From NCBI GenBank assembly GCA_035948165.1, contig DASZJM010000129.1:1-50164 (forward strand): 50,164 nt of DNA. The letters are read 5' to 3'. The DNA is from Candidatus Methylomirabilota bacterium (lineage in GTDB: Bacteria > Methylomirabilota > Methylomirabilia > Rokubacteriales > CSP1-6). Of the stretch, positions 1,849-30,393 are shown piece by piece. Numbering within the stretch: the stretch's first letter is position 1; every line of letters begins with the position of its first letter. The position numbers were made by a program, and so were the translations under genes. Below the pieces are notes generated by a model. That model made no database searches, had not been told where the DNA came from, and worked only from the letters and a program-made list of their open reading frames with translations.

Positions 1849-1863
1849 TGGCACATCCGTTGC
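1849..1863 (+). promoter_or_regulatory. Sigma-54 type -24/-12 promoter element upstream of mreB
   Basis: Exact TGGCAC-atccg-TTGC (followed by GT). 28 nt to ATG 1892, with RBS AAGGAG at 1881-1886. Confidence 0.6.
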
Positions 1864-1891
1864 GTCCTGTCCCCCCGCGAAAGGAGTGGGC

Positions 1892-2917
1892 ATGCGTCTG
1901 ACATCTCTCATGGGCTTCCTCGCCGACGACCTCGCGGTCGACCTGGGCACCGCCAACACCCTCGTGTACGTCCGGGGGCAAGGCATCGTTCTGAACGAGC
2001 CCTCGATCGTGGCCATGAAGGATGGCGCAGTGCTCGCGGCGGGTCACGAGGCCAAGGCCATGCTGGGCCGCGCGCCCGGGACGATCTCGGTGGTGCGCCC
2101 GCTCCGTCACGGGGTCATCGCCGACTTCGACAGCACCGAGAAGATGCTCCACTACTTCATCGCCAAGACCCGCCAGCGACGGAGCATCGTCCACCCGCGC
2201 GTGGTGGTCACGGTGCCGTCCGGCATCACCCAGGTCGAGAAGCGCGCGGTGCGTCAGTCGGCCCGCCAGGCGGGTGCCCGCGAGGCCTTCCTCATCGAGG
2301 AGCCGATCGCGGCGGCGCTCGGCGCCGGTCTGCCGGTGGCCGAGCCGGGCGCCAACATGATCGTCGACATCGGCGGCGGCACCACCGAGGTCGCGGTGAT
2401 GTCGCTCTCCGGCATCGTCTACTGCAAGTCGGTGCGGATCGCGGGTGACGAGATGAACGCCTCGGTCATCCAGCACATCCGCAAGAGCTACAGCCTCCTC
2501 GTGGGCGAGCGTCACGCCGAGGAGATCAAGCTCAAGCTCGGCTCGGCCTACCCGATCCCGGGCGAGCACCTCACCATGGAGGTCAAGGGGCGCGACCTCA
2601 TCGTCGGCATCCCCAAGACCATCCTGGTCACCGGCGAGGAGATCCGCGAGGCGCTGCGCGAGCCGATCATGGCCATCGTGAGCGCGGTGCACACGTGCCT
2701 CGAGCAGATCCCGCCCGAGCTGGCCGCCGACATCGTGGACAAGGGCATCGTCGTCTCGGGCGGCGGCGCGCTCCTGCGCGGCCTCGGCCCGCTGCTCCAC
2801 GACCAGACCGGGCTGCCCATCCGGGTCAGCGAGGATCCGCTCACCTGCGTCGTGCGCGGCGCGGGATGCCTGCTGGACGACGTCAAGCTGCTCTCTCGCG
2901 TCGCCCTGCCTTCGTAG
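1892..2917 (+). CDS. mreB: Rod shape-determining actin homologue MreB
   Basis: MRLTSLMGFLADDLAVDLGTANTLVYVRGQGIVLNEPSIVA...DIGGGTTEVAV...GGGALLRGL. RBS AAGGAG lies 5 nt upstream of ATG 1892. No mreC/mreD/rodA downstream. Confidence 0.95.
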   Translation: MRLTSLMGFLADDLAVDLGTANTLVYVRGQGIVLNEPSIVAMKDGAVLAAGHEAKAMLGRAPGTISVVRPLRHGVIADFDSTEKMLHYFIAKTRQRRSIVHPRVVVTVPSGITQVEKRAVRQSARQAGAREAFLIEEPIAAALGAGLPVAEPGANMIVDIGGGTTEVAVMSLSGIVYCKSVRIAGDEMNASVIQHIRKSYSLLVGERHAEEIKLKLGSAYPIPGEHLTMEVKGRDLIVGIPKTILVTGEEIREALREPIMAIVSAVHTCLEQIPPELAADIVDKGIVVSGGGALLRGLGPLLHDQTGLPIRVSEDPLTCVVRGAGCLLDDVKLLSRVALPS

Positions 2918-2958
2918 TCGCCCGCCCGCCGTCCCTCGTCGTCCCCTCGTGACGACGC

Positions 2959-2964
2959 TATAAT
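2959..2964 (+). promoter_or_regulatory. Perfect TATAAT -10 hexamer between mreB and the alcohol dehydrogenase gene
   Basis: gacgacgcTATAATgtcgg. The -35 is poor (TCGTCG). It is immediately preceded by the hairpin GTCGTC-ccctcgt-GACGAC (2938-2956), which could terminate mreB. Confidence 0.3.
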
Positions 2965-3023
2965 GTCGGCCACGCCGGCCGCGGGGCCGGCCGCCGATCC
3001 CTCGTCACCCACTGGAGGCCGCG

Positions 3024-28556: not shown

Positions 28557-29994
28557 TCCCGCCGCGATCGTCGCCCGGCTCGCCGGCCCCGGCCGCTCCG
28601 AACTCGCCCGGTACCTGGTTCGCCAGCGATGGTTCGCGGCCAAGACCCACGGGATCGATGCGCTCGCGGTGCGGGACTGGGCCACGCTCGACGAGGACGC
28701 CCCGCTCGTCCTGCTGCTCCTCGACGTCGACGGCGACCGCTACCACGTCGCGGTGACCGTCGCCGCCGACGCGCCGCCGCCCGCCGCGATGGCCGAGCTC
28801 GACGGCGCCGCGATCGTGGACGCCCACGACGACCCACGCTTCGGCCGCCGCGTCCTCGCCGCGATCGTGGCCGGCCGCCGCCTCGACGGCCCGACCGGGC
28901 GCTTCGCCTTCCACTCCACCCCCGGCTGGGTGTTCCCGCCCGACCCGGACGCGGTGGACGCGCGCCGCCACGCGGGCGAGCAGAGCAACACCTCGGTGTT
29001 CCTGGGCACCGGGCTCGTGTGGAAGACCCTGCGCCGGCCGCAGCCCGGCTTGAACCCGGATCTGGAGATCACCCGCTTCCTCACCACCCGGACCTCGTTC
29101 CGTCACGTCCCGCGCCTGGCCGGCTGGGCCGAGCACGAGGCGGCGGAGGGTGCCGCTACCCTGGGCGTGCTCCAGGAGTTCGTGGCGAACCGCGGCGACG
29201 GGTGGAAGCACGTGCTGAGCGTGCTGCGCGGGCGTCTCGGCGCGGGACCCGCGCGCACCGGCCCCGATCCGCTGGTCGAGGAGATGCGGCGGCTCGGCAC
29301 GATCACCGGCGGCCTCCACGCCGCGCTCGCCTCCGACACGGCGGATCCCGACTTCGCGCCCGAGCCGATCACCCGCGACGACGTGGCCCGCTGGGCCGCC
29401 GACATCCGCCGCGACGTGGAGGCGGGCGACGTGTGGGACCTCCCGGGCGGCGGCGCCCCGCCGGCCGACACGAACGGGGCCGGGGTCGTGCGCGCGCTCC
29501 GCGCGCTCGAAGCGCTGGTCGGCACCGTGAAGATCCGGAGCCACGGCGACTACCACCTGGGGCAGGTGCTGAAGACCGAGGACGGCTTCGTGATCATCGA
29601 CTTCGAGGGCGAGCCCGCGCGGCCCCTGGCCGAGCGGCGGGCCAAGCTGCCCGCCCTGCGCGACGTGGCCGGGATGCTCCGCTCGCTCGACTACGCGGCC
29701 CACGCGATCGCCTTCGAGGTGCCCGCCGCCGAGCGCGCGCCGGCGCTGGCGATGCTCACCGCGTGGGAGACCGAGGCGCGGCGCGCGTTCCTGGACGGCT
29801 ACCGGCGGGCCGCCGCCGCGAGCCCGGCCGCGCTGATCCCCCGCTCGGAAGAGGATCTCCTCGCGGCGTGCGCCGCGTTCGAGCTCGAGAAGGCCTGCTA
29901 CGAGCTCCGCTACGAGCGGAACAACCGCCCCGACTGGGTGGCCATCCCGCTGGCCGGCATTCGCCGGATCCTGCTCACACCGGAACGAGCGTGA
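28531..29994 (+). CDS. mak: Maltokinase (Mak/Pep2)
   Basis: 487 aa. [12 protein letters not shown]...[10 protein letters not shown]...[27 protein letters not shown]...[14 protein letters not shown]. 26-nt overlap with treS. Confidence 0.85.
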
Positions 29995-30184
29995 CGCCGC
30001 GCTCGTCCAGCCACTCCGCCACCTTCCGCCAGAGCCTCGGCTCTCGCTCCCGCCAGGCCTCGACGCCCGCGGCGGACACGACCTTGTAGGGACCTTCCTC
30101 TCGCAGCACCGCCTCCACGACCGCGGCCAGGCCGCTGTCGGCGGCCCGGCATTCTCCCAGCAGATCCTCGGCTCGACCGATCAT
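29975..30184 (-). CDS. Hypothetical 69-aa protein
   Basis: ORF with good GC3 bias. An exact sigma-54 element sits 15 nt upstream of its ATG. No family recognised. Overlaps the mak 3' end by 20 nt. Confidence 0.45.
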   Translation of the reverse strand: MIGRAEDLLGECRAADSGLAAVVEAVLREEGPYKVVSAAGVEAWREREPRLWRKVAEWLDERGVTLVPV

Positions 30185-30199
30185 GGGCGGCGTGGCAGC

Positions 30200-30214
30200 G
30201 CAAGCGCCGTGCCA
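30200..30214 (-). promoter_or_regulatory. Sigma-54 type -24/-12 promoter element upstream of the 69-aa ORF
   Basis: Reverse strand reads exactly TGGCAC-ggcgc-TTGC. 15 nt to ATG 30184. Confidence 0.5.
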
Positions 30215-30378
30215 CTGAAGCGTCGCCGTGCGATCCGAAGTATTCCGCCTTCCGACGGCCGAATCGAGGCGCTTCTACCGGGTAGTCCTGACCTGATCCC
30301 GATCGCTCCCGCGTCCGCTGACGCGGAATCCGCTGACATGTGCCGGGGATTCAGGCAGTTTGCCCACTCCGCGCTCAC

Positions 30379-30393
30379 TGGCACGTCACGTGC
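30379..30393 (+). promoter_or_regulatory. Sigma-54-like -24/-12 element upstream of the lmo0937-like/SOD operon
   Basis: TGGCACG-tcac-GTGC (followed by GT), one mismatch. 15 of 17 positions are identical to the element at 10890. It also forms the palindrome GCACGT-c-ACGTGC. 60 nt to ATG 30454. Confidence 0.45.

Follow-up and report, generated by a model that had tools for sequence, protein, structure and literature searches.

The canonical sigma-54 (RpoN) promoter has the consensus TGGCACG-N4-TTGCW, with NtrC and glnAp2 as its paradigm. RNA polymerase carrying sigma-54 binds the GG at -24 and the GC at -12 in a closed complex that it cannot open unaided; opening is powered by the ATPase activity of a hexameric AAA+ enhancer-binding protein (EBP), which is bound ~100-150 bp upstream and reaches sigma-54 by way of its GAFTGA loop. 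Circuits of this kind serve envelope stress in Escherichia coli (PspF-psp; GlrR(QseF)-glmY/rpoE P2), and the sigma-54/EBP networks of Myxococcus xanthus and the TacA and FlbD activators of Caulobacter serve shape change and stress-resistant states. Sigma-54 has been proposed as a 'central controller of the bacterial exterior' (Francke et al. 2011, PMC3162934), in a survey that makes no mention of mreB or penicillin-binding proteins (PBPs) and whose coverage lies outside the phylum studied here. We analysed a stretch of 50,164 bp (the window; 72% G+C, 6.4% intergenic) from a Candidatus Methylomirabilota bacterium (contig DASZJM010000129.1) and found nine -24/-12 elements that are, with high probability, genuine sigma-54 promoters of a conserved multi-operon regulon cluster in soil Methylomirabilota (Rokubacteria-like).

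The locus resembles canonical sigma-54 systems in its consensus, its invariant GG-N10-GC, the gene-facing orientation of its sites and the NtrC-type GAFTGA activator encoded among them, and its conserved upstream blocks lie ~100-140 bp away, in the usual enhancer zone. It differs in its density, in targets outside the classical nitrogen, flagellar and transport genes, and in three promoter-to-start gaps of 13-15 nt. As in the PspF and GlrR circuits, sigma-54 and a dedicated activator would induce membrane and envelope protection genes, but those activators serve one or two promoters each and the activator in the window falls below the GlrR and PspF family cut-offs. The many sigma-54 promoters and the response-regulator activator also recall Myxococcus and Caulobacter; here, however, nothing points to a developmental cycle in this uncultured organism, and the sampled DNA encodes one activator. 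The envelope targets (class A PBP, an MlaC-like lipid-trafficking protein, MreB, bactofilin/M23 peptidase and small membrane proteins) fit the exterior-controller view and are therefore less unexpected than an earlier note on this DNA had held, whereas the presence of stress genes (superoxide dismutase (SOD), DUF3309, DUF5670, PsiE-like) within the same cluster departs from it. The promoter class is a well-known one; the novelty lies in the lineage, in how densely the sites are clustered, in the set of targets and in the apparent leaderless configuration. A literature search pairing sigma-54 or rpoN with Rokubacteria, Methylomirabilis or Methylomirabilota found no relevant account.

Sigma-54 motifs in the window and in related loci

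Exact copies of TGGCAC-N5-TTGC occur five times in the window against 0.04 expected from its dinucleotide shuffles, none of which reached five; the earlier note, which had listed the same five positions, had put the chance expectation at ~0.1. Tolerating one mismatch yields eight sites against 2.25 expected and adds those at 9928-9942(-), 13304-13318(-) and 30379(+), and the ninth, at 5833(+), has two mismatches and retains GG-N10-GC. All nine keep GG and GC exactly 10 nt apart in a TGGCAC-N5-TTGC-like context, and a weighted -24/-12 score ranks the same nine highest in the whole window, each at 18.5 or above. Every one is intergenic and directed at a start codon, the C of the -12 GC lying 13, 14, 15, 26, 28, 28, 29, 60 or 68 nt from it. 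No site in the coding DNA of the window reaches 18.5, and the lower-scoring matches, all of them in coding DNA, occur at the simulated frequency. First-order Markov simulation gave 1.8 +/- 1.5 matches of at least 18.5 per window; control loci from other phyla contained one exact motif in 1.30 Mb, and their high-GC subset ~1 match of at least 18.5 per 22 kb. The earlier note's other positional claims were likewise borne out on the gene map: four further sites with one or two mismatches and intact GG-N10-GC, and all sites intergenic and 13-68 nt from the start codon that they face. The comparison of intergenic with coding DNA and of orientation that it had proposed, run on the window, placed all nine top matches between genes and facing one.

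Related loci were collected with three kinds of query. The PBP1A sequence retrieved syntenic contigs from Methylomirabilota/Rokubacteria metagenome-assembled genomes (MAGs; L001 at 81%, L004 at 77%, L002 and L003 at 58% identity), an alignment of the ANTAR regulator retrieved 80 soil-metagenome loci (L081-L160, 669 kb, 74-100% identity), and exact and homologue look-ups added contigs that cover the mreB end and the SOD end. All nine promoters recur at orthologous positions in related soil-metagenome or MAG loci (74-100% protein identity), seven of them in up to 80 loci, wherever a locus spans the site. L001 and L004 retain all the promoters that can be compared, amid spacers and surrounding DNA that differ, and in ungapped profiles the information comes close to its maximum on GGCA and (T)TGC and is slight in the spacer and flanks. 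Such invariant GG/GC cores among drifting spacers and flanks argue that these are functional sigma-54 promoters.

The ANTAR promoter was present in 80 of 80 loci scored, the promoter of the 306-aa gene in 78 and that of the PBP1A operon also in 78, as TGGCA[CT]G-N3-GATGCA; the activator-gene promoter was found in all 30 loci that cover it, and the PilZ promoter likewise in every covering locus, in the form [ACG]GGCA[CT]G-N4-TTGCT. In 15-16 related loci mreB is preceded by the same 16-mer, and a distant Methylomirabilia contig with another gene order (L003) carries TGGCGC-N5-TTGC 15 nt before the ATG of a stand-alone mreB. In some loci the promoter has outlasted its gene: the DUF3309 promoter is kept in 21-25 related loci (21 of 23 covering loci in one count), including loci without the DUF3309 gene, and in L001 and L004 (orthologous to window 14430-14660) that gene is gone and the promoter stands directly before the PsiE-like gene. 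The promoters at 30200(-) and 30379(+) are kept in L182 and L183 (SOD 87% and 80% identical), while the flanks there have diverged; the retained promoter of the 69-aa open reading frame (ORF) is followed by another gene in L183.

Outside the seven promoter classes, the 669 kb of L081-L160 held no other match of score 18.5 or more, an absence that may reflect selection against spurious matches or only redundancy of the sample. Two database labels conflict with synteny to the window locus: L001 (DATHSW010000017.1) is titled 'Candidatus Deferrimicrobiaceae', and SOD P0175 (L183) is named 'Candidatus Nitrosotalea sp.'. At ~81% and 80% protein identity, respectively, mis-binning or mislabelling is likely.

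Table 1 Predicted sigma-54 promoters, their target genes and conserved upstream blocks (window coordinates unless a contig is named; TSS, transcription start site).
Feature	Position	Strand	Sequence	Remarks
P_mreB, sigma-54 promoter	1849..1863	+	TGGCACATCCGTTGC	exact match; predicted TSS ~1875
Stand-alone mreB, 341 aa	1892..2917	+		Pfam MreB_Mbl, E = 1e-136
P_pilZ, sigma-54 promoter	5833..5847	+	AGGCATGTCGGTTGC	two mismatches; 13 nt from -12 C to ATG
PilZ-domain protein, 104 aa	5861..6175	+		Pfam PilZ, E = 2.6e-13; no Shine-Dalgarno sequence
Sigma-54 promoter of PBP1A operon	9928..9942	-	TGGCACGCGCGATGC	one mismatch; predicted TSS ~9916
Operon: 118-aa membrane protein, MlaC-like, 132-aa protein, class A PBP (771 aa)	6165..9898	-		
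P_antar, sigma-54 promoter	10713..10727	-	TGGCACAAGGGTTGC	exact match; divergent to the 10890(+) promoter
Receiver-ANTAR response regulator, 204 aa	10072..10686	-		Pfam ANTAR and Response_reg
Sigma-54 promoter of 306-aa gene	10890..10904	+	TGGCACATCACTTGC	exact match; 14 nt from -12 C to ATG
306-aa Pro/Ala-rich membrane protein	10919..11839	+		orthologues in L001 and L004
P_ebp, sigma-54 promoter of activator gene	13304..13318	-	AGGCACATCGATTGC	one mismatch; 57-nt predicted leader
NtrC-type enhancer-binding response regulator, 461 aa	11850..13235	-		
P_duf3309, sigma-54 promoter of DUF3309/PsiE-like/PCC operon	14643..14657	-	TGGCACAGCGATTGC	exact match
Operon: DUF3309 (50 aa), PsiE-like (161 aa), PCC-domain protein (154 aa)	13463..14614	-		Pfam
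Sigma-54 promoter of 69-aa ORF	30200..30214	-	TGGCACGGCGCTTGC	exact match; 15 nt from -12 C to ATG
69-aa ORF	29975..30184	-		gene call on 10/10 related contigs
Sigma-54 promoter of DUF5670/SOD/DUF202 operon	30379..30393	+	TGGCACGTCACGTGC	one mismatch
Operon: DUF5670 (49 aa), Fe/Mn superoxide dismutase (200 aa), DUF202-like (73 aa)	30454..31450	+		Pfam
Upstream block of P_mreB (candidate enhancer)	1712..1761	+	TTTTACA-N9-TGTAAAA dyad and two TACACG	highly conserved in relatives
Upstream block of PBP1A-operon promoter	10024..10053	-	TTTACACGATC ... GGAAATTCCTAC	conserved
Upstream block of P_ebp	13444..13467	-	GGTAACTACACGGTAAAATCTTCC	TTAC-N3-GTAA dyad; conserved
Upstream block of P_duf3309	14753..14783	-	GTTACCGG-N6-CCGGTAAC-GTTTACCGG	conserved
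Left site before bactofilin/M23-peptidase operon	L161:1-10000 region		TGGCAGGGTCATTGCT	
Left site before 137-aa response regulator	L161:1-10000 region		TGGCACTCGCGTTGCA	
Left site before small uncalled Cys-rich zinc-ribbon-like ORF	ORF at ~L161 5958-6119	-	TGGCACCGAGTTTGCC	ORF starts 14 nt past GC

The activator, its candidate enhancers and alternative explanations

The earlier note had read a GAFTGA-bearing enhancer-binding protein at 11850-13235, and domain searches agree: the product matches Response_reg, Sigma54_activat (E = 8e-72), AAA_lid_14 and HTH_8, that is, a receiver with a phospho-acceptor Asp, an AAA+ sigma-54 interaction domain and a C-terminal Fis-type helix-turn-helix. Its translation contains DDD at 9-11, Asp53, Lys103, a Walker A motif and the GAFTGA loop ESELFGHEKGAFTGA. 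The protein falls below every NCBIfam equivalog cut-off (AtoC, NtrC, ZraR, GlrR, PspF, PEP-CTERM regulator), its best scores being 458.7 bits for AtoC against a cut-off of 714 and 415.4 for the PEP-CTERM regulator against 502.6. GAFTGA activators are not known to have any partner but sigma-54.

Four promoters, those of mreB, the PBP1A operon, the activator gene and the DUF3309 operon, and perhaps a fifth, have TTAC/GTAA dyads and TACACG on the upstream side, at 99-143 nt from the -24 element. The intergenic regions that bear sigma-54 sites hold five TACACG against none in other intergenic regions of equal total size, four GTAAC/GTTAC against none and 11 GGAAW/WTTCC against one; GTAAC/GTTAC does not occur in 47 kb of coding DNA. 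Conserved blocks with TACACG, TTAC/GTAA or TACCGG/CCGGTA half-sites are found also at 5698-5713, at 30275-30293 and up to 14837, and the gap between the FAD-oxidoreductase and PilZ genes contains a conserved block (5741-5776) with the inverted repeat CGTCACGA-TGGG-GTCGTGACG, which is kept in L001. The upstream blocks could be enhancer sites or sigma-70 elements. Spacings of 8, 10 and 13 nt rule out GGAA ... CGTGTA as -35/-10 pairs of the extracytoplasmic function type; to read TACACG as a -10 element on the reverse strand, belonging to a divergent gene, is plausible for the FAD-oxidoreductase and 260-aa genes only, three regions having no divergent gene.

In the mechanism that we propose, a closed complex would form at each -24/-12 site and be opened by an ATP-hydrolysing activator bound upstream. 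Because the TTAC/GTAA and TACACG blocks are shared, the local activator may autoregulate and drive the mreB, PBP1A-operon and DUF3309 promoters through them, an assignment that we offer tentatively and with low confidence. A single regulon in which this activator serves all the promoters is rather unlikely. It is the only bacterial EBP in the ~58 kb sampled, the position of its gene suggests autoregulation, and four promoters share blocks; the antar/306-aa and 69-aa/DUF5670 pairs and the three sites to the left of the window, however, lack these blocks and have other conserved upstream sequences, and even among the four the distance to the blocks is not uniform. With upstream sequences so different, those promoters would presumably use other activators, encoded elsewhere.

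That the motif matches arose by chance in 72% G+C sequence is next to impossible. The relaxed weighted score does produce matches in unrelated high-GC loci, at the rate given above, and the weaker matches in the window's coding DNA are no more frequent than simulated; yet the excess of exact motifs, the confinement of the nine top scorers to the small intergenic fraction, their correct orientation and their recurrence in relatives are not the work of chance, since both half-sites are kept where neighbouring bases drift, in relatives whose variable spacers show that they are not near-identical copies. Conserved intergenic 15-mers can also be operators of another DNA-binding protein, or a dispersed repeat, and the promoter role here is predicted from sequence. 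This reading is highly improbable, however: the motif is asymmetric, with only GG and GC 10 nt apart invariant and the spacer free, which is the contact signature of sigma-54; its orientation always fits the downstream gene and its distances to start codons fall into two tight classes; and the sites lack common repeat-like flanks and have a GAFTGA activator in their midst. Only a slim chance attaches to the proposal that sites bound by the holoenzyme are mainly poised or occluding and modulate overlapping sigma-70 promoters. Sigma-54 closed complexes are stable, a consensus scan gave one sigma-70-like candidate, CTGACA-N17-TACATT at 5790-5818 upstream of PilZ, and TAAAAT lies at ~13446 in the upstream block of P_ebp; but L001 does not retain the hexamers at 5790-5818, the sigma-54 sites stand at productive, conserved distances from Shine-Dalgarno sequences or start codons, and the cluster contains an activator gene.

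Genuine sigma-54 promoters therefore best explain the observed motif statistics, position, orientation, conservation and activator domains. Several points nonetheless count against this interpretation. We infer sigma-54 dependence in vivo, the TSSs, the pairing of activator with promoters and the physiological role. The loci compared are many relatives of a single locus, so the counts of retained sites do not represent separate events. The window and all retrieved loci were scanned with a regular expression for the RpoN box and no rpoN was found; its presence in the genome we infer solely from the conserved GAFTGA activator. The activator is assigned to promoters through short motifs that contain A and T, in intergenic DNA that is itself richer in A+T, and the TACACG near the FAD-oxidoreductase start may be the -10 of that divergent gene (TAGAGT on the opposite strand, 11 nt before its ATG).

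Target genes, predicted leaders and the stand-alone mreB

Genes were mapped with a codon model and corrected by orthologues and by public gene calls on related contigs, which match the PilZ call. These corrections assigned the 5833 promoter to the PilZ gene, the 10713 promoter to the receiver-ANTAR regulator, with its start at 10686 set by orthologues and a Shine-Dalgarno sequence, and the 10890 promoter to the 306-aa protein; two ORFs of the codon model, 10905-11177(+) and 11194-11733(-) (85 and 179 aa), are spurious in the light of orthologues and public calls, which support the 306-aa gene. Among the earlier note's target labels, SPOR and BON found no confirmation. Genes of the PBP1A operon, separated by at most 37 nt, match Pfam MlaC, Transgly and Transpeptidase, and NCBIfam PBP_1a_fam above its cut-off; the 118-aa protein once labelled BON-like has no Pfam or NCBIfam match, nor has the 69-aa ORF. 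The gene order DUF5670/SOD/DUF202 is identical on related contigs, and an Rfam search of the window returned no known RNAs.

The 306-aa protein, which the earlier note had called a SPOR protein, matched nothing in Pfam, NCBIfam or a PDB sequence search. Its orthologues measure 273-366 aa and are conserved only at the N-terminus, in one transmembrane segment and in a C-terminal module of ~55 aa. A single-sequence structure model of the C-terminus forms a beta-alpha-beta-beta module with a predicted local distance difference test (pLDDT) of ~90, and its Foldseek hits to the SPOR domains of DedD, CwlC and DamX were non-significant (E 0.66-2.7); a SPOR fold is no more than weakly suggested.

Distances from promoter to start codon sort the genes by leader. 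At 26-29 nt (four genes) the predicted transcript opens with a Shine-Dalgarno sequence, as in the 17-nt leader of mreB, which contains GGAG; at 60-68 nt (two genes) the predicted leader is longer and again includes a Shine-Dalgarno sequence, the range over these six genes being 15-57 nt. No Shine-Dalgarno sequence precedes the PilZ, 306-aa and 69-aa genes (starts 5861, 10919 and 30184), where the distance is 13-15 nt. The short spacing and the ATG are conserved in relatives: the distance is 13-14 nt for PilZ, and of 35 distinct sequences of the 306-aa gene, whose start is invariably ATG, 33 have 13-15 nt. Given this spacing, and transcription starting 11-13 nt past the GC, transcripts of the three genes would begin 2-4 nt before the ATG; with such TSSs their sigma-54 promoters would yield leaderless messenger RNAs. 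A literature search for leaderless RpoN-dependent transcripts returned general TSS atlases only and no description of any. If the predicted starts are right, sigma-54 promoters can feed leaderless translation.

The mreB gene of the window differs from that of the canonical mreBCD-pbp2-rodA operon. It has no adjacent mreCD, pbp2 or rodA, and an Fe-ADH gene follows it. Operon-linked MreBs of Rokubacteria, NC10 and Methylomirabilota (L167, L168, L170) belong to the same family, with ~72% identity to the window protein (70-74%; 71-72% in the operon comparison), but are 89-100% identical among themselves, and their genes are preceded by sigma-70-like TTGTG-N17-TAGAnT and no sigma-54 site. In Rokubacteria (L167:9740-10000) and NC10 (L168:30-293) the operon is preceded by TTGTG-N17-TAGA(C/T)T, probably one form of the phylum's housekeeping promoter. 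In a tree, the window MreB and relatives that are 82-97% identical to it make up a separate long branch. Other stand-alone MreBs (L003, P0029, P0030, P0033) fall outside that branch; they share 65-76% identity with the window protein and 76-77% with the operon-linked form. With respect to the core rod complex, the gene lacks linkage to mreC or mreD and its sequence departs from the near-invariant form of the phylum. Its isolation, its 72% identity against 89-100%, and a sigma-54 rather than a sigma-70-like promoter indicate that it is probably an accessory paralogue. The earlier note had seen unusual wiring in core morphogenesis genes placed with stress genes under sigma-54; the promoters themselves are supported, but the claim is weakened by an mreB that is probably accessory, by the unconfirmed SPOR protein and by the published role of sigma-54 at the cell exterior (PMC3162934).

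Sigma-54 would thus control the MreB paralogue, PilZ, the PBP1A operon, the ANTAR regulator, the 306-aa envelope protein and the activator gene, together with the DUF3309/PsiE/PCC and DUF5670/SOD/DUF202 stress-type operons, the 69-aa ORF and, outside the window, the bactofilin/M23-peptidase operon. Such a set would suit a signal-dependent programme of envelope and shape remodelling and stress protection. We regard as doubtful, though worth stating, the broader view that sigma-54 is heavily used here, at about a third of transcription units over at least 39 kb, for a second shape machinery (MreB paralogue, PBP1A operon, bactofilin/M23), general-stress-type genes and some leaderless messenger RNAs in a remodelling or dormancy programme. 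Rokubacteria/Methylomirabilota are abundant in soil and uncultured, and the locus provides promoters recognisable by sequence and backed by relatives. It also defines a testable regulon with one candidate activator, comprising an extra MreB, a class A PBP, bactofilin/M23, cyclic di-GMP and ANTAR signalling, and stress proteins.

Extent of the cluster

Contigs encoding an MreB identical to that of the window reach 8 kb beyond its left end (L161 in Table 1) and contain three further strong sigma-54 sites, for a total of 12 sites in ~39 kb, or about one per 3-5 kb. At the right-hand end, an exact look-up of the 679-aa hydantoinase gave no record by which to extend the window. In S. meliloti, RpoN-type motifs were found upstream of 112 TSSs in the whole genome (PMC3616915). 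Other lineages of the phylum (L167-L171, 87 kb) gave ~1-3 matches, not above the chance rate of ~1 per 22 kb, so the data support a local hot spot; they give no support to high density across the phylum and do not establish it over the whole genome. If the density held genome-wide, reliance on sigma-54 would be extreme.

Neither the trehalose/alpha-glucan block (15.6-30 kb) nor the metabolic genes at 31-50 kb have sigma-54 sites, in the window or in relatives. The block (15589-29994) encodes amylase-family proteins of 1011 and 613 aa, GT4, DUF5752, TreT-like, GlgE, a TreS-like amylase and a maltokinase-like protein, and sits between two groups of sigma-54 promoters.

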